Assembly: GCA_965231095.1 (NCBI GenBank)
Contig: OZ246416.1
Span: 436,380-500,379, forward strand
Source of the DNA: an uncultured Gammaproteobacteria bacterium
GTDB taxonomy: Bacteria > Patescibacteriota > Patescibacteriia > XYB2-FULL-38-15
DNA: 64,000 bases
Direction of reading: 5' to 3'
In this document: positions 3,088 to 48,100 of the stretch, piece by piece
How the letters are laid out: the number at the start of each line of letters is the position of its first letter
Position numbering within the stretch: position 1 is the stretch's first letter
Position numbers and translations under genes: made by a program
The notes under the pieces: model-generated
Told to the model about the DNA's origin: nothing
The model's input: the letters and a program-made list of their open reading frames with translations, nothing else
The model's database searches: none

Positions 3088-4629
3088 TTATTTCCTCGCC
3101 TTCTCCGTCACCCAAAACCCTAAATATTTTCCAAGCATCAGTCTTGTTTGCGCTTCCACGGCTGGGATTGAACCAAATAAAATCAAAGAAATCGGAAGCA
3201 ACGCCCATTGGGCAAGCATGATAATAAATTTAAACGGACTCTGATTTTTTGGCCGCGGAGGAAGTAAAAATAAAAATAAAATCGCGGAAACAACCATCCC
3301 AAGCATGGCGGCGGTCAGGAGCCACTGCAGGACAAGCGGCGCGGTCTGAAAAAACGCCGTTGTTCCAATCTTATCTTTTCCAACCCAAAGCGGCAATTTG
3401 CTCAAAACAAACATCAGGATCGGCGCGGTTGCCCAAGAATACATCCCCTCTCCCAGATTCCAAAGATATTTAATTTTTTTCCAAAAAGGAATTTTTGGCA
3501 CGGCGATTTCTCCGCTATCAGTCTTCAATGTCCCGCGAGAAAAATGCCAAACCATATATGGAAAATGCTCCACTCCCCAAGCCCAACGCCGCTGTTGTTT
3601 ATAAAGATTAACCAAGCTTTTCCAGGGGGTCTCGGCCATTACCGTATCCATGGAAACCGGAACATACATTGGCACAACTTCAAACTCCCCGCCATAACGG
3701 ATAAAACATTGTAAAAAAATTCTTGAATCATCAGTGACAATATCTTTCTGCCAAAAATCAACATCAACTAACGCCTTGAAAGCGATGCTGTGCGAAGAAA
3801 AAGTAAAAAGCCGATCGGGTTTTGCAAGTTCTGTTAGCAACCAAAAAGTTGTGCCAAAGGCCGCGACGCGCATCAGGGACATTGAATCCCAGATATTATT
3901 ATTGTAGAGCGCCACCGGCTGAAAGGCCGCCCGCTCCCGCCCGGGATGCGTGATATATTTATATGCCAGGCACGAAAAATATTCCGGATGCACGCAAGTA
4001 TCGCTATCGAAATAAGAAACAATAATTTTTTCATAAGAAATTTTAAGTTCGTCAATCAATTCTTTGGCGCGAAAACCGGCCCAGTGCGCGTTTGCCCCCT
4101 TGCCCTTAATTTCTCCAACCAAATTATCCGGATGCACAGTAGTAAGCAACCGAAAAAAATTATTACCGAATTCCTTTTTAATTTCCTCCACATTTTTTAA
4201 AAAATTTTCTTTATTTCTTTCTTCGCCGGACAAAACCACTATCATCTTATCTTTTGAATAATTTGAAGCTATCAAACTTTTAAACGTGCAACGCAAAACT
4301 TCAAGTGGTTCTTTGGAGGTCGGCAAAATTATCAAATGATAATAATTCTGCCAATCCGGCAATTCTTGAACTTTTTTCCACCAATCTGTCTTTACATCTT
4401 TTTTAAAACGCCGCCAAGAAATTGCCATGTAAAAAACGAAATACAGCACGCGGAAAAGCCAATAAATACAAAAAATTATCACGAAATAAATTACCCAAAG
4501 CGGTTTCCAAAAAGAAAGCAAAATAGCCAAAATAAAAGTAACCCAGACGAGCGCGCCTGGAATAATTTCTAACATTCTATATTTTGTCCTGTCGGTAATC
4601 TTCATAAGGTTGATTACGGCAAAATTCAA
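3088..4629 (-). CDS. Integral-membrane processive GT2 (cellulose-synthase-like, QxxRW motif)
   Basis: 513 aa with multiple N- and C-terminal TM helices. Central GT2 domain with D,D,D residues and a QQRRWAWG motif (QxxRW of processive beta-glycosyltransferases). Confidence 0.6.
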   Translation of the reverse strand: MNFAVINLMKITDRTKYRMLEIIPGALVWVTFILAILLSFWKPLWVIYFVIIFCIYWLFRVLYFVFYMAISWRRFKKDVKTDWWKKVQELPDWQNYYHLIILPTSKEPLEVLRCTFKSLIASNYSKDKMIVVLSGEERNKENFLKNVEEIKKEFGNNFFRLLTTVHPDNLVGEIKGKGANAHWAGFRAKELIDELKISYEKIIVSYFDSDTCVHPEYFSCLAYKYITHPGRERAAFQPVALYNNNIWDSMSLMRVAAFGTTFWLLTELAKPDRLFTFSSHSIAFKALVDVDFWQKDIVTDDSRIFLQCFIRYGGEFEVVPMYVPVSMDTVMAETPWKSLVNLYKQQRRWAWGVEHFPYMVWHFSRGTLKTDSGEIAVPKIPFWKKIKYLWNLGEGMYSWATAPILMFVLSKLPLWVGKDKIGTTAFFQTAPLVLQWLLTAAMLGMVVSAILFLFLLPPRPKNQSPFKFIIMLAQWALLPISLILFGSIPAVEAQTRLMLGKYLGFWVTEKARK

Positions 4630-4750
4630 AATAAAGCTCTCTTTTTAGCTCTAATTTCTGTTTAAATCATAATTCATTTAAGCGATTTTGTCAACCCTCA
4701 CCAAAGTCAAGGGGTATTATTTTATCCGAAATAAACCTCTAAATTTAAAT

Positions 4751-4782
4751 AAAAAAACCGGCCAGTATTTAAAACCAGCCGG
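4751..4782 (-). terminator. Rho-independent terminator downstream of the GC-rich ORF 4796-5377
   Basis: Minus strand reads CCGGCUGG-uuuuaaaua-CUGGCCGG (8-bp stem with 2 G-U pairs) followed by UUUUUUU. Confidence 0.45.
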
Positions 4783-4795
4783 GACGGGACCTTCC

Positions 4796-5377
4796 TCACT
4801 TACTGCCACCGTTCTTACGCTCTTCTCCGCGAAGCCTCCGCAAAAGCCGCCAGGCGATCCAGTGGTAGGTTTTAATAAGGGCAAGACGTGTCTTGCCGAT
4901 TGTGTCAACGCCCTCGCTTGTTACGGGGCGAAGCGGCTTATCCTTACTACAAGATACCTTGAAGGAAATCTGGACATGATGGCTCCGGTCGAACTCTGAC
5001 TCGAAGGCGCAGTAACCGACTACGCGTACCTCTTCAAGATATTGCTCGATCTCTGGCCAGCGCCGCCGAACCGCCTCGTGCAGAGCGCATCTGACAACGT
5101 CGACAGAACCAAGCTCGCCATCGTAGGCATGCCCATTCTTCTCTCGATCCTTAATTACCCTCTCGTCGACGATTTCGACAAGTTGATCGTCAAGAGACAA
5201 AACGAGATGGACCTTCACCCAGCTACTACACTCATCTATCCAGTGGTTATCTACCTTGAACGTGACCACATGAAACTGCGGCGCCCTACCCGCGGCGATT
5301 GCCCCCGCCAACTCCTTCTCAATCGTGTTGTTTGTCTCGGACTCCTCCCCCTCGGGCCCTTCCTCGCACTCTGTCAC
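4796..5377 (-). CDS. Hypothetical protein, GC-rich islet 1 (193 aa, GTG start, acidic N-terminus)
   Basis: A ~53% GC block in a ~40% GC background, with no A/T homopolymer runs, unlike its flanks. GTG start is preceded by GAAAGAAGG about 6 nt upstream, and the ORF has its own terminator. No family recognised by eye. Confidence 0.4.
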   Translation of the reverse strand: MTECEEGPEGEESETNNTIEKELAGAIAAGRAPQFHVVTFKVDNHWIDECSSWVKVHLVLSLDDQLVEIVDERVIKDREKNGHAYDGELGSVDVVRCALHEAVRRRWPEIEQYLEEVRVVGYCAFESEFDRSHHVQISFKVSCSKDKPLRPVTSEGVDTIGKTRLALIKTYHWIAWRLLRRLRGEERKNGGSK

Positions 5378-9370: not shown

Positions 9371-10063
9371 TTACAAATATTTTTCCCAAACTTTCGGCCA
9401 AGGAAGTTCAACCGTTTCCGATTTTTCACCAGTAGCGGAAGTAAAAGAGAGCGAGGCGGAAAAAAGCGCGATGGATTTATCGGCAAGCGGTTCGGGTGCG
9501 CCGTATTTTATGTCTCCCAAAATCGGGTGGTTGGCTGAAGCAAGTTGTGCCCGAATTTGATGCGCCCGGCCTGTTCCCAATTTTATTTTTAACAAAGAAT
9601 TTTTGTCTCCAACTTTTTCCACTTCCCAAAAAAGTTCTGCCCGCTTTGTCCCCGGCATTTCCCGATTAAAAACCTCCACTAGATTTTTCTTCTCATCTTT
9701 TTTCAAAAAACTCACGATCTCACCTTCCGCTTTTTCCATTTTTCCGGCCACAACCGCGTAATAATATTTTTCCACGCTTCGTTCGCGCCATTGCGCCGAA
9801 AGCCGTGAAGCGCCCTTGCTTGTTTTTGCGAAAAGCACCACGCCGCCGACCGGACGATCAAGCCGATGGACGAGCCCCAAAAAAACATTTCCCGGCTTTT
9901 TATATTTTTCTTTCAAATATTTTTTTACTTCATCCATCAAATTCGGATCACCGGTTTTATCTCCTTGCACCAGCATTCCCGCTGATTTTTCCACTACGAT
10001 TAAATGATTGTCCTCGTATAAAACATTCAACTTCATATGTTCCACCGAGCAAAAATTCCGCAA
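9371..10063 (-). CDS. RluA-family 23S/tRNA pseudouridine synthase
   Basis: HRLDRPVGGVVLFAKT (the HRLD catalytic Asp motif) and GRAHQIRAQL. True start is probably MKLNVLYEDNH at 10036, which avoids overlap with the upstream gene. Confidence 0.75.
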   Translation of the reverse strand: MRNFCSVEHMKLNVLYEDNHLIVVEKSAGMLVQGDKTGDPNLMDEVKKYLKEKYKKPGNVFLGLVHRLDRPVGGVVLFAKTSKGASRLSAQWRERSVEKYYYAVVAGKMEKAEGEIVSFLKKDEKKNLVEVFNREMPGTKRAELFWEVEKVGDKNSLLKIKLGTGRAHQIRAQLASANHPILGDIKYGAPEPLADKSIALFSASLSFTSATGEKSETVELPWPKVWEKYL

Positions 10064-10899
10064 GGCAAAAGCCGGCCACCTGCCTCGAGAATCGTCAATT
10101 CCCCGGCTTCAAGCGTTCCGCCATATTTTTCTACCAGTGGCAATAAATTATTTTTGTAAGCCATAGCGGAATATCCCGAAGCGTAACCGTTGATTAAAAA
10201 AAATAACGGCTTGTCGGAAAGTAATTTAAAACATAAATCAATCAATTCTAAAAAATTATCTTCAATTTTCCAAAGTTCGCCGCCCGGACCATGGCCAAAG
10301 GCCGGCGGATCCAAAACAATTCCGTCGTAGCGATGGCCGCGTTTTATTTCTCGTTTTACGAATTTCACCGCGTCTTCCAAAATCCAGCGGATTGGTTTTT
10401 TATCAAGCTTTGATAATGTCGCATTATCCCGCGCCCAAGTAATCGCGACTTTTGATCCGTCCAGGTGGCAAACTTCCGCCCCGGCCGACGCCGCCGCGAG
10501 CGTTGCCCCACCCGTGTAGCCAAAAAGATTAATCACGGAAACTTTTCTTTTTTCCTTGCCGACTAAATTTTTAATCCACTCCCAATTTCCAACTTGCTCC
10601 GGAAAAATTCCCAAATGTTTAAAGGTTGTGGGCTTTATCCAAAAATCCAAACCTGCCAAATTTATCTTCCAGCGGCCGGGCACTTCACGCCCAATTTTCC
10701 ATTCTGCTGACTCCGCGCTTCGCTTAAATTCTCCATCAATTTTTTTCCACGCCGCCACATTTAATTTCGGCCAAAGCGCCTGCGGATCCGGGCGCGAAAA
10801 AACAAACCGCCCGTAGCGTTCCAATTTCTCTCCCTCCCCGGAATCAATAAGTTCGTAATCAGTTGAGGGTTTGGTTTTTAGGATTATATAGTCGGACAT
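10033..10899 (-). CDS. Class I SAM-dependent rRNA methyltransferase, RlmI/YwbD-like
   Basis: 288 aa. SAM-binding LFGYTGGATLAAASAGA...DGSK and a VLDPPAFG (DPP(A/F)) catalytic motif. Confidence 0.6.
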   Translation of the reverse strand: MSDYIILKTKPSTDYELIDSGEGEKLERYGRFVFSRPDPQALWPKLNVAAWKKIDGEFKRSAESAEWKIGREVPGRWKINLAGLDFWIKPTTFKHLGIFPEQVGNWEWIKNLVGKEKRKVSVINLFGYTGGATLAAASAGAEVCHLDGSKVAITWARDNATLSKLDKKPIRWILEDAVKFVKREIKRGHRYDGIVLDPPAFGHGPGGELWKIEDNFLELIDLCFKLLSDKPLFFLINGYASGYSAMAYKNNLLPLVEKYGGTLEAGELTILEAGGRLLPCGIFARWNI

Positions 10900-20723: not shown

Positions 20724-21866
20724 TTATTTAGTTTTGTAAACTTTTTCCGTCTCCAGAACAATCTTCTCCCAGTTAAAATTTTTCTCAATAAATCCCTTCC
20801 CCCGCTCGCCGCGGCCGGAGGCAATTTCCGGAACATTCAAAAGATAAACTATTTTTTCGTAAAGATCGTCAACGTTTTTTGTTTCAAAAGAAAATCCGGA
20901 GTGGTCAATTGTTTCCAAATTTTCCGGGATGTCGCTAATTAAGACACAGGTGCCGTAAGACATCGCTTCCAAAATCGTAATGGAAAGGCCTTCGGCTTCA
21001 GAGGGGTGAACATAAAGATAGGCATTCGCAAAAAGTTGTTTTAATGTATCACCCGCCTGGAATCCGGCAAAAATAATATTTGGACTCTGCTCGGCAAGCT
21101 TGTTTAAATAAGCGTAGTAATCATCAGTAAAACTTGGCGCGCCGACAATTACCAATTTTTTTATTTTCCCCCCTGGCCAATTTTTTGGGTCATCCCCAAA
21201 AATTTTTTCCATTTTCCGATAGGCTTGAATCAAATAGTGAATTCCTTTGTGCCGAATTAGCCGCGCCACTGTTAAAATATATGAATCTTTTTTCAAACCA
21301 AATTTTTCTAATTCGCCCTCTCCCTTGATCTCTTCCGCGCGAACGCCGTTTGGAATATAAACAACATCTTTCTTAAATTTTTCTTTGCAATATTTTTTTA
21401 TGGACTCTGAAACGGCAATAGTTTTGTGCGCGAAGTGGCACGCCGTCCATTCTCCAAAACCAAGATACCATCTCGCGAACCATCCCCATTTTTTATGAAA
21501 GCGGTCAATGCTGTGGAAAGTGACGACAACTTTTGCCCGCGGTTTAAAGATTCTTGGAATCCAAGCAAGGGTGGAGGGGCCGACGCCGTGATAATGAATG
21601 ATGTCCACCTTTTTAAAAAGAACATGGATCGTTGAGAAAATTGTATGGGTAATTGTGTCTAAATTTTTTGTGAGGATAGACGGTAAGGAAATCAATTTGA
21701 CGCCTTTATAAATTTTCTGGCCATTTATAATAAACCTAGGGCGGACGTAAGCAAAAACCTCGTGGCCGCTTGCGGCAAGCCGAACAGATAATTCCTCCAC
21801 ATGGCGTTCCACTCCCCCGTCCCGAATAAAGGGAATGCCCTTTGGGCCAATCATGGCAATGCGCAT
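20724..21866 (-). CDS. Family 4 glycosyltransferase (GT-B, retaining)
   Basis: 380 aa. C-terminal EAEGLSITILEAMSYGTCVLISD (E-X7-E motif of GT4). Confidence 0.7.
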   Translation of the reverse strand: MRIAMIGPKGIPFIRDGGVERHVEELSVRLAASGHEVFAYVRPRFIINGQKIYKGVKLISLPSILTKNLDTITHTIFSTIHVLFKKVDIIHYHGVGPSTLAWIPRIFKPRAKVVVTFHSIDRFHKKWGWFARWYLGFGEWTACHFAHKTIAVSESIKKYCKEKFKKDVVYIPNGVRAEEIKGEGELEKFGLKKDSYILTVARLIRHKGIHYLIQAYRKMEKIFGDDPKNWPGGKIKKLVIVGAPSFTDDYYAYLNKLAEQSPNIIFAGFQAGDTLKQLFANAYLYVHPSEAEGLSITILEAMSYGTCVLISDIPENLETIDHSGFSFETKNVDDLYEKIVYLLNVPEIASGRGERGKGFIEKNFNWEKIVLETEKVYKTK

Positions 21867-21995
21867 ATCACAACCACAAAAGTAATAAAAAAACTAAAGG
21901 CCTTGTCAAACTTAAATAACCTTGTTATCATTATATCAAAATCAGGCATATATAGCTATAATTTTACATTTTGCATTTTTAATTTCTAATTTTTT

Positions 21996-22068
21996 GACCC
22001 GGTAGCTCAGCTGGTAGAGCATCTGCCTTTTAAGCAGAGGGTCCTGGGTTCGAGCCCCAGCCGGGTCA
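21996..22068 (+). tRNA. tRNA-Lys (TTT)
   Basis: GACCCGG/CCGGGTC acceptor, D-arm GCTCAGCTGGTAGAGC, anticodon stem TCTGC/GCAGA with loop CTTTTAA, T-arm CTGGG-TTCGAGC-CCCAG. Confidence 0.85.
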
Positions 22069-22334
22069 TTTTTTATTTTTCTATAGTTTTATTAAAACCT
22101 TCAAACGGAGGTTTTTTTGTTTGTCTTGCCCCGTAGTAGAATTTTGGAATTTAAATACTCTTTCGCCGGTAATCGATTGCATTTATCTTTATCGCAAAAT
22201 ATTAAAACCAAGTTCTTTGTCCGCCCCTGGCGGATATCCAAAATTTCACTACGGGGTTGACAAAATCGGCGTATTATTCTAAAATCCAAGGTCGCGATAG
22301 ACAACAACTCTCCGAATCGGAGAAGGAGGCACCC

Positions 22335-22988
22335 ATGGTGGAGGAACGTGATTTCGAGAGACTGCGGGAGCTTACCCCACGGCAATTGTGGATGGAGCTC
22401 GCGGCGGCCTACGAGGCGCTCGCGGCGCAAGAAGTGGAGATCAGGGGTCTCCGCAGCTCGCTGGCGGAACTTTGGAACGAGGGGGAACAATACATGGCCG
22501 AGGGGCGGATCGATCACCTGACGGGCGCGCTGAACCGCAGGGGCGTCGAGATCGCTCTTACTGACGAAATGTCCTTCGCCCGACGCTTCGAGTCCCCTCT
22601 CAGCGTGATCGCGATCGACGTCGACCACTTCAAGGAAACGAACGACACGTACGGACACCCTGCCGGGGACACCGTCCTGCAGGAAATCGTCAGGCGTGCT
22701 CGCAAGGTTCTCCGCCCCTATGACTCAATCGGACGAATAGGAGGAGACGAACTCACCATCATTCTCCGAGGGGCAACTTTGAAAAACGCAACTTTGGTCG
22801 CCGAACGTATCTGCGCGGCCATAGCGCTAAATGTCTTTTCCTACGGCGAAGCAACCTTCCGTGTAACAATCAGCGTCGGTGTGGCCGTGGCCGAGAGAGA
22901 GGCAAAACAAACCCTCGAAGCGGCAGACGAGGCTCTCTATGAGGCCAAACGTAGCGGTCGCAACCGCGTAGTTGCGATCAATCGATAG
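22335..22988 (+). CDS. GGDEF-domain diguanylate-cyclase-like protein (GGDEL variant) with short N-terminal coiled coil; GC-rich islet 2
   Basis: ~60% GC. AAGGAGG lies 7 nt upstream of ATG MVEERDF (this ATG was chosen over the longer track ORF starting at 22257). GGDEF-domain hallmarks: LTGALNRRG, IDVDHFKETNDTYGHPAGD, RIGGDELTIIL. No sensor or TM domain. Confidence 0.75.
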   Translation: MVEERDFERLRELTPRQLWMELAAAYEALAAQEVEIRGLRSSLAELWNEGEQYMAEGRIDHLTGALNRRGVEIALTDEMSFARRFESPLSVIAIDVDHFKETNDTYGHPAGDTVLQEIVRRARKVLRPYDSIGRIGGDELTIILRGATLKNATLVAERICAAIALNVFSYGEATFRVTISVGVAVAEREAKQTLEAADEALYEAKRSGRNRVVAINR

Positions 22989-22996
22989 ACGGCCCA

Positions 22997-23054
22997 CAAG
23001 GACAGAAAATCCCGCAACCAGGAGGCGCGGGAAAAACTCTGTCCTTGTTTTTTT
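22997..23054 (+). terminator. Rho-independent terminator after the GGDEF gene
   Basis: CAAGGACAG...CTGTCCTTG outer stem with inner TCCCGC/GCGGGA stem, followed by TTTTTTT. Confidence 0.55.
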
Positions 23055-23056
23055 AT

Positions 23057-24136
23057 CTATCTCAAAATCTCGTCAACGATTTTTTGCGCCGCGTTGGCAG
23101 ACATTATTTCTTTAATATTTCTGCCCAAATTTTCCAATTCCACTTTGTTATTTAGCAATTCCCGAACAGCCGCGGAAAAATTTTCCGGCGTTATATTTTT
23201 TTCATCCCAAAACATAACCGCATTTTGTTTTTTAAAATAATAAGCATTGTCTTCTTGATGACTTTCGGGAATTGGGATTAAAACCGTTGGCTTGCCAAGC
23301 ACGGCGAGTTCGGTTAGCGTCGCCATGCCGGCGCGGGAAATTACAAGATCAGAGGCGGCAAAAATATCCGGCAAATCTTTTCCCAAAAATTCCGCGGAAT
23401 GATACCGCGCTGTTTCCCTTTTTATATTTTCAATTTCATTTTTCATCGCCTCATCAATTCTTCCACCAGTCATATGAATTACCTGGCAAAATTTTACAAG
23501 CTCGCGCGAGGCCGCGACAATAATTTTATTTAAACTCATTGCCCCCGTCCCCCCGCCTAAAATAAAAATTGTTGGCAAATCTTTTTCTAAATTAAAATTC
23601 TGCGCGGCGCGCATTTTATCCCCGGAAAAAATTTCTTGCCGCACCGGATTTCCAACAACTACTCCTCGCGGAAAATATTTTAAAGATTCTAAAAATGTGA
23701 CAGTTATAATTTTTGCAAACTTCGCCGTAAGTTTATTTGCTAAACCCGGCCGCAAATCTTCTTGATGAACCAAACTTGGCACGCGCAAAATCCAACCCGC
23801 CCAAATTACCGGCACAGCCACAAACCCTCCGGCCGACAAAATCATTTGTGGTTTAAATTTAAAAATCAACCAAAACGATTTTAAAAATCCCGCCGCAATA
23901 TAAAATGGCGCCAAAAAATTCCAGCCGGAAAAATACCGACGCAATTTCCCCGCCGACACACTCGTAAATTTAATCCCAAACGACTCCACAAACTTTTTTT
24001 CAGGTCCATTCTTTGTTCCAATCCACAAAAAATCCGCGCCAGACTCGCGCTTTTTTATTTCTTCGGCCACGGCCAGTAGCGGCGTCACCGATCCCATTGT
24101 CCCCCCACCTGTCAAAATTATTTTCATATCAGCCAC
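23057..24136 (-). CDS. murG: Undecaprenyl-PP-MurNAc-pentapeptide-UDPGlcNAc GlcNAc transferase MurG
   Basis: 359 aa. N-terminal ILTGGGTMGSVTPLLAV GT28 motif, C-terminal ...GGGTGAMSLN..., and ending ISRAGMATLTEL. Confidence 0.85.
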   Translation of the reverse strand: MADMKIILTGGGTMGSVTPLLAVAEEIKKRESGADFLWIGTKNGPEKKFVESFGIKFTSVSAGKLRRYFSGWNFLAPFYIAAGFLKSFWLIFKFKPQMILSAGGFVAVPVIWAGWILRVPSLVHQEDLRPGLANKLTAKFAKIITVTFLESLKYFPRGVVVGNPVRQEIFSGDKMRAAQNFNLEKDLPTIFILGGGTGAMSLNKIIVAASRELVKFCQVIHMTGGRIDEAMKNEIENIKRETARYHSAEFLGKDLPDIFAASDLVISRAGMATLTELAVLGKPTVLIPIPESHQEDNAYYFKKQNAVMFWDEKNITPENFSAAVRELLNNKVELENLGRNIKEIMSANAAQKIVDEILR

Positions 24137-33296: not shown

Positions 33297-33492
33297 ATAT
33301 ATCAGTATATTATACCAAAAAAAATTTAAAAATCAAAAACTAACTATACATTTAACATATACCACTGACCCTTAATAAGATGATGACTAACGCCCGTTAA
33401 ATATATATTAAATTAACTATACCCCCCTCTCTTCATCTTTCCATCATAAAAAAAGAATATACTATAAAGTGGGAAATTTAAAGATTAAATTT

Positions 33493-33768
33493 ATGGATCA
33501 GGACTTGTGCTATTGCGGAGAACGAGCCACTCGCGGTGAGGGGTTGCTTCGAAACACCATGTCCTGCCAGTCTTGCGGCAGCGAATGGGAAATCACCCAT
33601 TGCTGGAATTGCGGCGAACAAATTGACGGAAGATTTTCTTCAACCTGCCGCGCCTGCGACTGGTATCTCTGCGCCAAATGCGGGGCGCACGAACCGGACT
33701 GCACTAACACTCTAAACGCAAAAGCGCGCGTCGGGAATGCGGCTACTTTCGGCAGTACGGCAGTTTAA
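33493..33768 (+). CDS. Small Cys-rich (zinc-ribbon-like) protein; moderately GC-rich islet 5
   Basis: ~92 aa with five CxxC/CxC pairs (CYC, CQSC, CWNC, CRAC, CAKC...C). ~52% GC against AT-rich flanks. Start at ATG 33493 chosen (the track ORF begins at GTG 33469). Terminator follows. Confidence 0.4.
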   Translation: MDQDLCYCGERATRGEGLLRNTMSCQSCGSEWEITHCWNCGEQIDGRFSSTCRACDWYLCAKCGAHEPDCTNTLNAKARVGNAATFGSTAV

Positions 33769-39763: not shown

Positions 39764-40345
39764 TTACCACCACAAAACCTTGGCCAGGGCGGCAAGCGAC
39801 CGACCGTCGGTGGACTGCTTCCGGAACTCGGCCGGGGTCATGAGCTCGGCTTCCGGGATGGCGTTGACCTCCACGGAATAGACCGCGATCATGCCCACGA
39901 TGCGCTGGGGATTGGATTCGATGTAGCCCACAGGCTCGAGTCCCTTCTCGGCCAGTTCGCCTTTGGAGATGCTCGAGGGTTTCAGCTCCAGCATCTCGCC
40001 GTTCAGGCCCTTGGCCTTGCGGACGCGCACCTTGATCTGCCCGTGCTGGTGGTTCCACTCCACGATGACGTGACCCACGACGCGCGAGCTGCCGTCCTCG
40101 GGCTGCGAGAGGTTGGGCTCTTCGTAGAGCACGAGCTGGCCCCAGCCGCCGCGATCCACGTAGCGCCCGTCGAAGAACTTGCCATCGCCCCGACCACTCC
40201 GACCCGTCGCCGGATCGAAGCACCAGAGCTCGGCCTCCTTGCCATCCTCAACCTTCTTCGTGAGGATCGGATCGAGCTCGAGGCAAACGACGACATCTTC
40301 GCCCAAACGCCTTCGCGCCTCTTCCAAAACGATGATCTGTACCAT
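39764..40345 (-). CDS. Hypothetical protein, GC-rich islet 3 (194 aa)
   Basis: ~60% GC. Start trimmed to ATG (MVQIIVLEEARRRLGEDVVV) preceded by AAGGAAGGAAAG. Strong terminator downstream. Sits inside the rml cluster. No family recognised. Confidence 0.45.
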   Translation of the reverse strand: MVQIIVLEEARRRLGEDVVVCLELDPILTKKVEDGKEAELWCFDPATGRSGRGDGKFFDGRYVDRGGWGQLVLYEEPNLSQPEDGSSRVVGHVIVEWNHQHGQIKVRVRKAKGLNGEMLELKPSSISKGELAEKGLEPVGYIESNPQRIVGMIAVYSVEVNAIPEAELMTPAEFRKQSTDGRSLAALAKVLWW

Positions 40346-47638: not shown

Positions 47639-47738
47639 AAAAAATAATAAAACGCCAGAAAATAATCACCGGCGTTTTTTTATTGACAAAAAATAAAATA
47701 AATGATTAAATAATGAGTCACCAACAAAGGAGGGCTTG

Positions 47739-48038
47739 ATGACCAACAAAGAGAAGGCCAAGATGGAAGACATTCTGATGCGGCACTTGGAGGAAGACGA
47801 CCGTCTTTGCCCGATCGCCGAAGCAATGCCCGGCGACTACGTCACCGTAGTGCTTCCCTACAAGCTTTTGTGGGCTTTCCGCGTGAACATCGCTCGCCAC
47901 GCGATCGTGCGCAAGCGCGACTTGTCTCGGCCCGACGACGGAGTGGAGATCGAACTTCTGAACGACCGGGCCGAAACCGATCAGCTTCCCCTGGACTATC
48001 CGTGTTTCGTGACGCCGCCTGCGACCGACGAGGAATAA
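47739..48038 (+). CDS. Small hypothetical protein, GC-rich islet 4 (~99 aa)
   Basis: ~58% GC. AAGGAGG lies 5 nt upstream of ATG (MTNKEKAKMEDIL...). Followed by a terminator. No family recognised. Confidence 0.45.
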   Translation: MTNKEKAKMEDILMRHLEEDDRLCPIAEAMPGDYVTVVLPYKLLWAFRVNIARHAIVRKRDLSRPDDGVEIELLNDRAETDQLPLDYPCFVTPPATDEE

Positions 48039-48073
48039 CAACAAAAAACCGCCGGAAAATCCGACGGCCGCCC

Positions 48074-48100
48074 GCCACCAGCTCAATGGTGGCTTTTTTT
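48074..48100 (+). terminator. Rho-independent terminator after islet 4 ORF
   Basis: GCCACCA-gctcaa-TGGTGGC followed by TTTTTTT. Confidence 0.55.

Follow-up and report, generated by a model that had tools for sequence, protein, structure and literature searches.

A small stand-alone GGDEF cyclase beside tRNA-Lys in Patescibacteria, probably an old resident of its clade with alleles exchanged between lineages

The usual outputs of the second messenger cyclic dimeric GMP (c-di-GMP) are the cell envelope, polysaccharides and adhesins. Among the described cyclases of the GGDEF type, DgcB of Caulobacter crescentus (6TTR/6TTS) consists of an N-terminal helix and, directly after it, a GGDEF domain that has a binding site for c-di-GMP; its host is a proteobacterium that lives freely and possesses a complete network for c-di-GMP. 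SiaD of Pseudomonas aeruginosa (7E6G) is small and dimerises through a stalk helix; it is reported to depend on the partner SiaC and a SiaA/SiaB switch (PMC8457831). The Marinobacter aquaeolei GGDEF protein 3IGN, Dcsbis, PleD and WspR are canonical product-inhibited cyclases, of which PleD, WspR and full-length Dcsbis bear sensor or receiver domains. In the hybrid promiscuous (Hypr) enzymes, with GacA (5VS9/6D9M) as example, Ser or Thr at the position of GacA residue 348 occurs together with a GGDE[F/Y] signature, and the combination of Ser with GGEEF is inactive (PMC6456294). Here we analysed a GGDEF gene that lies just downstream of tRNA-Lys in a stretch of 64,000 nucleotides of contig OZ246416.1, the whole of which is called the window. 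A preliminary description of the stretch had taken the gene for an orphan or a recent insertion in a genome of the candidate phyla radiation (CPR), a group thought normally to be without c-di-GMP machinery. The latter is not supported, as diguanylate cyclase genes have been reported in metagenome-assembled Patescibacteria genomes, more frequently in sediment-attached populations (PMC9938205). In our judgement the gene probably encodes a small stand-alone diguanylate cyclase, an old resident of its clade whose alleles are exchanged between lineages.

Relatedness to the window was scaled by the identity of FtsW, and the species scan included one genome per species. The FtsW species scan yielded Patescibacteria, the closest of them titled Candidatus Falkowbacteria or 'Patescibacteria group bacterium'. 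A homology search with the cyclase returned a small family of full-length relatives (203–217 aa, 56–71% identical), and those with names were Patescibacteria. In every context that was read the gene order was a GT4 glycosyltransferase gene, tRNA-Lys, the cyclase gene and a convergent murG-ftsW-mraY block. The cyclase was found at this same site in all species-scan loci with an FtsW identity of at least 79%, and loci from metagenomes and Logan lowered this bound to 77%. It was missing in locus L013 (FtsW 68%) and in more distant Patescibacteria (FtsW at most 68%). In distant members of the phylum such as L014 and L075 the site was empty, tRNA-Lys lying between GT4 and murG. Since the order GT4, tRNA-Lys, murG was widespread in the phylum with varying filler (L014, L044, L053, L075, L083), we concluded that the tRNA-Lys/murG spacer is an old variable spot. 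The preliminary description had pointed to tRNA 3' flanks as classic integration sites; this flank of tRNA-Lys is indeed a variable hot spot within the phylum, and relatives carry repeats of the tRNA 3' end there.

About 30 distinct cyclase alleles were distinguished, all with an intact reading frame. When an allele of class B1 was used for searching, about 15 further clusters at 90% identity were obtained, and class A ranked above all generic GGDEF proteins. In a neighbour-joining tree of the catalytic domain, calculated with the 114 nearest outgroups, the family was monophyletic but weakly supported (bootstrap 88/200), while class A received 186 and class B 176. The nearest outgroups were GGDEF proteins linked to FHA or receiver domains, few of them named (Chondromyces, Myxococcales, Pirellulales); from these and from the composition of the gene, the donor was probably GC-rich. 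Because N- and C-terminal motifs, locus and terminator are all common to the family, one ancestral gain is the simplest explanation: on this simplest reading the cyclase was gained once by the ancestor of the Falkowbacteria-type subclade, into the tRNA-Lys/murG spacer, and has been kept there since.

All 63 open reading frames (ORFs) of at least 70 aa in the window were screened with Pfam, with relaxed thresholds for the unannotated ones, and none of them matched an integrase or transposase family. The tRNA-Lys 3' end did not recur in the window when up to 3 mismatches were allowed, nor was there a tRNA-derived repeat family in 21800–23300; the attachment site suggested for the region downstream of the gene was thus not seen in the window. 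In three related loci (L003, L009, L096), repeats of the tRNA 3' end of 26–27 nt bracket an insert of 147–211 nt upstream of the cyclase promoter. As these repeats bracket the upstream insert, the site is a target of small insertions, and the cyclase itself is not bounded by tRNA-end repeats. The same site in relatives, the lack of a bracketing repeat and the lack of an integrase argue for an old gain and not for an insertion specific to the window genome. A same-site homologue in every examined relative with an FtsW identity of at least 77%, together with the number of alleles, does not support an orphan or recent arrival, and no copy at a non-tRNA locus with host-like composition was found among the relatives examined.

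Compared with the window, the flanking proteins other than MurG were 79–93% identical in lineages with an FtsW identity of at least 79% (M50 protease: 70–73% in the two most distant), MurG was 63–85% identical and the cyclase only 37–71%. The ratio of non-synonymous to synonymous change (dN/dS) was 0.24–0.5 for the cyclase and 0.04–0.18 for the flanks, rough values as the synonymous divergence (pS) was near saturation. The cyclase evolves several times faster than its neighbours. Between the window and L001, pS was 0.47 in the cyclase and 0.51–0.55 in the flanks, which fits vertical descent with relaxed constraint.

Vertical descent cannot account for two further comparisons. The flanks of L001 and L006 were 99.5–99.9% identical, with pS of 0.01–0.02 in the GT4 and M50 genes, whereas the cyclase cassette between them had 72% DNA identity, 64% protein identity and a pS of 0.56. 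The edges of this cassette were sharp, one just past the -35 box and the other about 50 nt before the stop codon. Likewise, L103 was 98.3% identical to L089 and L104 over a flank of 3.5 kb and 79% identical in the cassette, with the 3' edge about 45 nt before the stop. We read both cases as real recombinants and not as assembly joins, because the shared edge segments are too short for an assembler to link strains. Within the protein, variability and reshuffling were greatest at the N-terminus, with an identity between alleles of 9–64%. N-terminal groups cut across catalytic groups: L011, L087 and L089 have a common N-terminus in front of domains of three catalytic groups, L009 carries an N-terminus like that of the window on a class B2 domain, and between P0004 and L003 the domain has an identity of 93% and the N-terminus of 55%. 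Judged from these alignments, alleles as well as N-terminal and catalytic modules appear to be exchanged between lineages by homologous recombination. The 5' recombination arm would be the conserved tRNA and promoter, and the 3' arm would comprise the final 45–50 nt of the gene together with the terminator hairpin and murG. Such cleanly bounded replacement in near-identical backgrounds is common among genes for surface or conflict functions and would not be expected of a signalling enzyme in the cytoplasm.

Other sources of the variation were considered and rejected. Silent donor copies for gene conversion were not supported, since no other GGDEF-like protein or DNA segment was present in the window. 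A diversity-generating retroelement did not fit differences of all types along about 640 bp in a window without reverse transcriptase. An integron-like cassette did not fit either, as the variable block ends within the coding sequence, the hairpin lies outside the block and no integrase is present.

The identity of the enzyme was supported by profile matches and by a structure model. Pfam GGDEF (PF00990) matched residues 59–211 (E=3.5e-40, 137.8 bits against a cut-off of 23.8) and TIGR00254 scored 152.6 bits against a cut-off of 37.4. The hallmark motifs LTGALNRRG, DVDHFKETND and RIGGDEL were all present, in agreement with the preliminary description. The single helical extension at the N-terminus that was named there was also found, but with about 58 aa instead of about 70. 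The AlphaFold2 model (pLDDT 96.5) consists of a helix over residues 15–56 (42 residues) and then the GGDEF fold, and a stand-alone GGDEF protein with an N-terminal helix only is thereby supported. The best-matching solved structures by sequence were 3IGN (7e-30), Dcsbis 4ZMM, PleD 1W25 and WspR 3BRE (E 7e-30 to 5e-23); the nearest solved relatives are active cyclases. Foldseek placed SiaD, 3IGN, Dcsbis, WspR, DgcB (coiled coil plus GGDEF) and GCN4-WspR in the top ranks, and the GGDEF domain of the model deviated from 3IGN, 4ZMM and PleD by a root-mean-square deviation (rmsd) of 1.2–1.4 Å.

All invariant residues of a 30-sequence alignment are kept in the window protein (D95, N103, D112, D130, G136, G137, E139, K205, R209). 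Among 15 alleles, D95, N103, D112, G136, G137, E139, K205 and R209 were retained in nearly all and R127 and D130 in 15/15, with five residues separating RPYD from GGDEL. By spacing, we take D95 to correspond to D327 of PleD, N103 to N335, D112 to D344, R127/D130 to R359/D362, G136-G137-D138-E139 to GGEE, K205 to K442 and R209 to R446, and the RxxD spacing is the same as that of R359-D362 in PleD. In the alignment, all of these residues occupy columns that are invariant or almost so. The sole departure in the active site is F140L, while both glycines and both signature acids are kept. The metal-binding acids are intact, and the degenerate active site that might have been feared was not found. 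Only the alleles of the window and of L006 had Leu at the last signature position; L096 had Ile and the remaining alleles GGDEF or GGEEF, and GGDEL can therefore not be regarded as a trait of the family. Leu or Ile was found at this position in 10 of the 120 nearest homologues. Further deviations among the alleles were R68H, D104S and D112S in L009, N67V in L011 and R209G in L087. The literature disagrees on GGDEL, which one paper treats as probably weakly active (PMC12900916) and another, with reference to WspR mutagenesis, as wholly inactive (PMC4331095). From its sequence and predicted fold, the window protein is probably a stalk-plus-GGDEF cyclase of ordinary architecture, active or weakly active in the GGDEL allele. 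It is predicted to be GTP-specific, based on Asp112 in place of Ser/Thr and Leu in place of Phe/Tyr.

The following course of action would be consistent with these features. A near-consensus promoter and a strong ribosome-binding site would drive expression of the cyclase, and the 42-residue N-terminal helix may pair two subunits, by analogy with the stalk in DgcB, SiaD, WspR and GCN4-WspR fusions. The two GGDEF domains would join two GTP to c-di-GMP, which would bind to the intact RxxD site and limit the output. The level of c-di-GMP would then be roughly constant, set by expression rather than by a sensor domain, and the Phe-to-Leu change may lower activity in the window allele. A link of c-di-GMP to the surrounding envelope, polysaccharide and adhesin-like genes is a guess.

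The composition of the gene differs from that of its surroundings, as had been described earlier. GC content was 0.59 and GC content at third codon positions (GC3) 0.68, against 0.43 and 0.43 for the window and host, and values of 0.55–0.65 were confined to approx. 22300–23000, with approx. 0.42 around. Host codon use predicts a GC of 0.505 and a GC3 of 0.46 for this protein, and approximately half of the GC excess comes from the amino-acid content and the rest from codon choice. Codons ending in C for Phe, Ile, Asn, Tyr, Asp and His made up 68–85% in the cyclase and 12–35% in host genes. GC3 was 0.63–0.73 across all cyclase alleles. A decay of GC towards the composition of the host was also considered: polarised synonymous changes towards AT and in the opposite direction numbered 204 vs 92 in the cyclase and 523 vs 672 in the flanks, counts from overlapping triplets in which a parsimony bias is likely. 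Translational selection as the cause of the GC-rich codons was rejected, since the L9 and L27 genes had a GC3 of just 0.50 and 0.44.

Several observations weigh against the reading of the gene as an old resident with an active product. The 63 window ORFs gave no match to EAL, HD-GYP, PilZ or MshEN, and Rfam detected no c-di-GMP riboswitch within the 64-kb window. The absence of a PilZ or EAL partner nearby, already remarked on in the preliminary description, was thus borne out within the window, and with no phosphodiesterase, receptor or riboswitch in 64 kb the c-di-GMP pathway is incomplete as seen. We found no study of c-di-GMP receptors in Patescibacteria in the literature; the 'PilZ' in a paper on Saccharibacteria is a pilin name and not the c-di-GMP receptor domain. 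The support for a single origin was weak (44% bootstrap), and near-saturated pS makes the dN/dS ratios only rough. A second GC-rich gene of the window, treated below, holds a GC3 of 0.78–0.85 across Falkowbacteria and Uhrbacteria. Finally, in the passage of PMC4331095 that cites WspR mutagenesis (Malone 2007), GGDEL should abolish activity.

From the last point it could be argued that the GGDEL allele is catalytically dead or nearly so, being a c-di-GMP-binding scaffold or receptor that acts via RxxD, or an allele heading for loss. The Phe to Leu change abolishes WspR function according to the same passage, Leu or Ile is present in three alleles (window, L006, L096) with further oddities in L009, L011 and L087, and a dN/dS of 0.24–0.5 indicates relaxed constraint. 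Against this, the ligands of metal, base and phosphate and both signature acids are intact in the window allele, Leu or Ile occurs in 10 of the 120 nearest homologues, and GGDEL is held to be probably, if weakly, active in PMC12900916. A receptor would in addition require a source of c-di-GMP, and no other cyclase was seen in the window. The frame was intact in every allele and dN/dS was well under 1. We therefore consider a dead allele unlikely, yet deserving of some weight.

Only a slim chance is given to a decaying passenger gene without present function, retained because deletion is slow. The fast protein evolution, the lack of partner genes in the window and the degenerate positions in some alleles would be in line with decay, but the frame is intact in about 30 alleles and promoter, ribosome-binding site and terminator are conserved. 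The residues of catalysis and of the RxxD site hardly differ between alleles, unlike the remainder of the protein, dN/dS is again well below 1, and useless DNA is unlikely to be retained clade-wide in genomes of <1 Mb.

The minimal architecture and the GGDEL signature had earlier been taken to recall defence-associated or hybrid-promiscuous enzymes, that is, a cyclase making another cyclic (di)nucleotide to trigger an effector. The unusual composition, a strong allelic diversity resembling that of conflict loci and the Ser at the Hypr position of one relative (L009) could be quoted in favour. The residue of the window protein at the position of GacA Ser348 is, however, Asp112; natural enzymes with Ser/Thr bear a GGDE[F/Y] signature, and by the published model the pairing of Ser and GGEEF seen in L009 gives no activity (PMC6456294). 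The c-di-GMP-specific RxxD site is kept in all alleles. PADLOC gave just a marginal match to a Cas10 palm domain (E=0.0098), with no stretch passing. No effector gene adjoins the cyclase, whose neighbours are tRNA-Lys and the convergent murG. A scan of viral-contig proteins returned only a generic GGDEF protein of 43% identity, and three DNA-pattern scans nothing, so that a close phage relative was not found in these scans. An enzyme of the Hypr or defence type is thus very improbable. The L009 allele (9890–10570, minus strand) is unusual in its own right, with Ser at the Hypr position, GGEEF, R68H and D104S, and with a window-like N-terminus on a domain of another class.

That the gene is cargo of a mobile element recently integrated at the tRNA-Lys 3' end of the window genome, for which its position beside the tRNA, its foreign-like GC and codon use and the tRNA 3'-end repeats of 26–27 nt in L003, L009 and L096 might speak, is contradicted by the data and hardly credible, as those repeats bracket the 147–211-nt insert and not the cyclase, no such repeat lies downstream of the cyclase in the window, the screen of the 63 window ORFs gave no integrase or transposase, the gene occurs in all relatives with an FtsW identity of at least 77%, and its divergence from L001 (pS 0.47) is close to that of the flanks (0.51–0.55).

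The old resident with exchanged alleles thus remains the explanation that we prefer. It may be carried further, with a small chance of being right, to a long-lived recombining polymorphism in what might be the sole cyclic-dinucleotide synthase of a reduced episymbiont. Alleles and docking helices would be maintained by conflict or by partner specificity (phage, host bacterium, or between strains), the hairpin arms would be a sequence-specific site of exchange or control, and signalling would proceed via an undescribed kind of receptor, the latter because no EAL, HD-GYP, PilZ or MshEN domain or riboswitch was seen. A Patescibacteria clade whose largest assembled contigs are 0.57 and 0.89 Mb retains one cyclase, highly expressed by its appearance, beside cell-wall genes, and a proteome this small would allow c-di-GMP receptors to be searched for exhaustively. 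Four features are worth following: alleles exchanged in near-identical backgrounds, shuffled modules, an invariant hairpin and codon use that stays GC-rich.

Features of the cyclase locus, with positions in the window.
Feature	Position	Strand	Basis and remarks
tRNA-Lys(UUU)	21995-22069	+	ARAGORN; Rfam RF00005, 73.2 bits; conserved 5' anchor, same tRNA upstream of the cyclase in related loci
Terminator-like hairpin and T run, ending the tRNA transcript	22094-22122	+	Pattern scan; counterpart hairpin in the spacers of relatives
128-nt element with 20-nt terminal inverted repeats	22129-22256	+	Inverted-repeat search, folding
Sigma-70-type promoter TTGACA-17-TAAAAT of the cyclase gene	22257-22285	+	11/12 consensus matches
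Shine-Dalgarno AAGGAGG, 5 nt 5' of ATG	22323-22329	+	Sequence reading
Cyclase gene, 654 nt, 217 aa	22335-22988	+	Pfam, NCBIfam, PDB sequence matches, AlphaFold2, Foldseek
Codons 15-56, single long helix, presumed dimerising stalk	22377-22502	+	Secondary structure of the model
RPYD (R127-D130), RxxD product-inhibition site	22713-22724	+	Sequence reading; allele table
GGDEL signature (G136-L140)	22740-22754	+	Sequence reading; allele table
Terminator hairpin between the convergent cyclase and murG genes	22996-23055	+	Folding, pattern scans
murG (glycosyltransferase family 28), convergent with the cyclase, first of the murG-ftsW-mraY block (conserved right flank)	23057-24136	-	Pfam; synteny
GT4 glycosyltransferase, conserved left flank, divergent from tRNA-Lys	20724-21866	-	Pfam; synteny

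The position of the GGDEF gene just after tRNA-Lys(TTT) was confirmed by ARAGORN, Rfam and reading of the ORF, with the start 265 nt past the tRNA and the stop codon TAG at 22986–22988. To the left of the locus Pfam identified Translin, an M50 protease and the GT4 glycosyltransferase, and to the right murG, a Nudix gene, ftsW and mraY; the genes flanking the cyclase have cell-wall and envelope functions. In 13 of the 14 spacers that were read, the cyclase promoter had CTTGACAAAAT and a -10-like box, L096 having ATTGACAAAAT. A ribosome-binding site of the GGAGG type preceded the start in 13/14 alleles (AAGGAGA in L007). The perfect AAGGAGG noted earlier in the window is present, but it is separated from the ATG by 5 nt and not by 7. 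Rfam showed no riboswitch or other known RNA, whether in the spacer, in the untranslated regions or in the window at large. In L012, an ORF of 402 aa (3714–4922, minus strand) lies between tRNA-Lys and the cyclase, which there does not directly adjoin the tRNA; by sequence the ORF may encode a radical-SAM enzyme of the MiaB/RimO type.

The terminator had been called strong, and folding agreed: the hairpin at 22996–23048 followed by a run of T7 had -28.7 kcal/mol (z = -5.0). Its outer stem AAGGACAGAA/TTCTGTCCTT did not vary in any of the alleles, and GGAGG is present in the loop. The inner stem occurred in two compensating versions, CCCGC/GCGGG and ACCCT/AGGGT. In the outer stem there was no covariation, and its conservation is therefore at the level of the sequence. 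A pattern scan located the hairpin in 9 metagenome contigs; the 8 that could be placed by flanking genes all had it at the cyclase/murG junction, L094 being too short, and no viral contig contained it. We also observed that the outer stem AGGACAGA / TCTGTCCT was unchanged at the window junction and 14 other loci, despite near-saturated synonymous sites in the neighbourhood. The conservation of the outer stem exceeds what a terminator needs, and it may serve as recombination arm as well as two-way terminator.

Small inserts were a further property of the spacer. Direct repeats of the tRNA-Lys 3' end surrounded inserts of 126–211 nt, placed between the tRNA and the gene that follows, at L003:9632-9870, L009:10708-10871 (minus strand) and L096:1-110, and were also seen in L053, L016 and L070. 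The inserts of L003, L009 and L096 have a common conserved core, GGGTCGGGAAACGGGAGTTTCC...; they had no Rfam match and were absent from viral contigs. Miniature integrative elements are one possibility for them, a small RNA of an undescribed kind that targets tRNA-Lys another. The 128-nt element of the window is positioned exactly at the -35 box, with TTG on either side and TTGACA left at its right end. It folds at -45.1 kcal/mol (z = -5.9), and 18 of the 20 positions of its terminal repeats are complementary. The element was found in the window genome only; the spacer of L090 is otherwise near-identical but lacks it. Its arms gave two matches where 0.02 were expected, and a similar single arm was seen in the L003 lineage (L003:6043). 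Many metagenome contigs (L005, L090, L096, L102–L105) break off within the tRNA-Lys spacer, 150–430 nt before the cyclase, which fits strain heterogeneity or repeats breaking assemblies.

A second single-gene GC-rich island is located at 39764–40345 (minus strand; GC 0.59, GC3 0.78). It is flanked by an FdtA-like gene and rmlD and has a TTGACA promoter, a ribosome-binding site and a terminator of its own. The gene has no Pfam match and belongs to a 46-member family restricted to Patescibacteria. The family is syntenic in the dTDP-sugar cluster of Falkowbacteria and Uhrbacteria, with a GC3 of 0.83–0.85 in hosts of 0.41 and 0.51 GC. High GC is thus a stable property of certain genes in these genomes, and alone it is no evidence of foreign origin here. 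The gene was considered as the missing c-di-GMP receptor and rejected, since its model (pLDDT 91) weakly resembled only Nudix enzymes and sugar-nucleotide (dTDP-sugar) enzymes of the EvaA type. Two short GC-rich ORFs may belong to the same class of genes: one at 47718–48086 (minus strand; 122 aa, GC 0.58, GC3 0.65), which adjoins a GT4 gene and has no Pfam, NCBIfam or PADLOC match, and one at 33469–33768 (plus strand; 99 aa, GC 0.53), which has no Pfam match. In the L003 lineage (L098:4603-5338) the second GC-rich gene is followed by two GC-rich ORFs absent from the window, of 69 aa with a GC3 of 0.90 and of 161 aa with a weak match to the T2SSE ATPase. The window genome has at least two single genes of this kind, GC-rich, quickly evolving and with a promoter of their own, whose high GC is shared by every relative examined; in genomes of this clade GC content alone should therefore not be taken as a signal of recent transfer.

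Among the known cyclases, DgcB had the highest query-normalised TM-score of the listed matches (0.82; target-normalised 0.91, rmsd 1.8 Å over 194 columns). The window cyclase shares the helix running into the GGDEF domain and the product-binding site with it, at an identity of 26%, and differs in the allele swapping and the tRNA-linked locus, for which there is no evidence in DgcB. SiaD was the top Foldseek match (E=1.5e-19) and is similar in its small size and stalk helix. The NCBIfam model of SiaD (NF038266) aligned at 1e-41, yet with 143 bits against an equivalog cut-off of 290, and the Pfam screen showed no siaABC-like phosphatase, kinase or partner-switch genes near the window cyclase. 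With the Hypr enzyme GacA the window cyclase has the GGDEF fold (6D9M, E=3e-26) and the GGDE start of the signature in common, but Hypr enzymes have Ser/Thr at the specificity residue and Phe/Tyr at the signature end, where the window protein has Asp112 and Leu. The catalytic residues and the RxxD spacing are the same as in 3IGN, Dcsbis, PleD and WspR, and in place of the sensor or receiver domains of PleD, WspR and full-length Dcsbis the window cyclase carries a helix only, with a signature ending in Leu.

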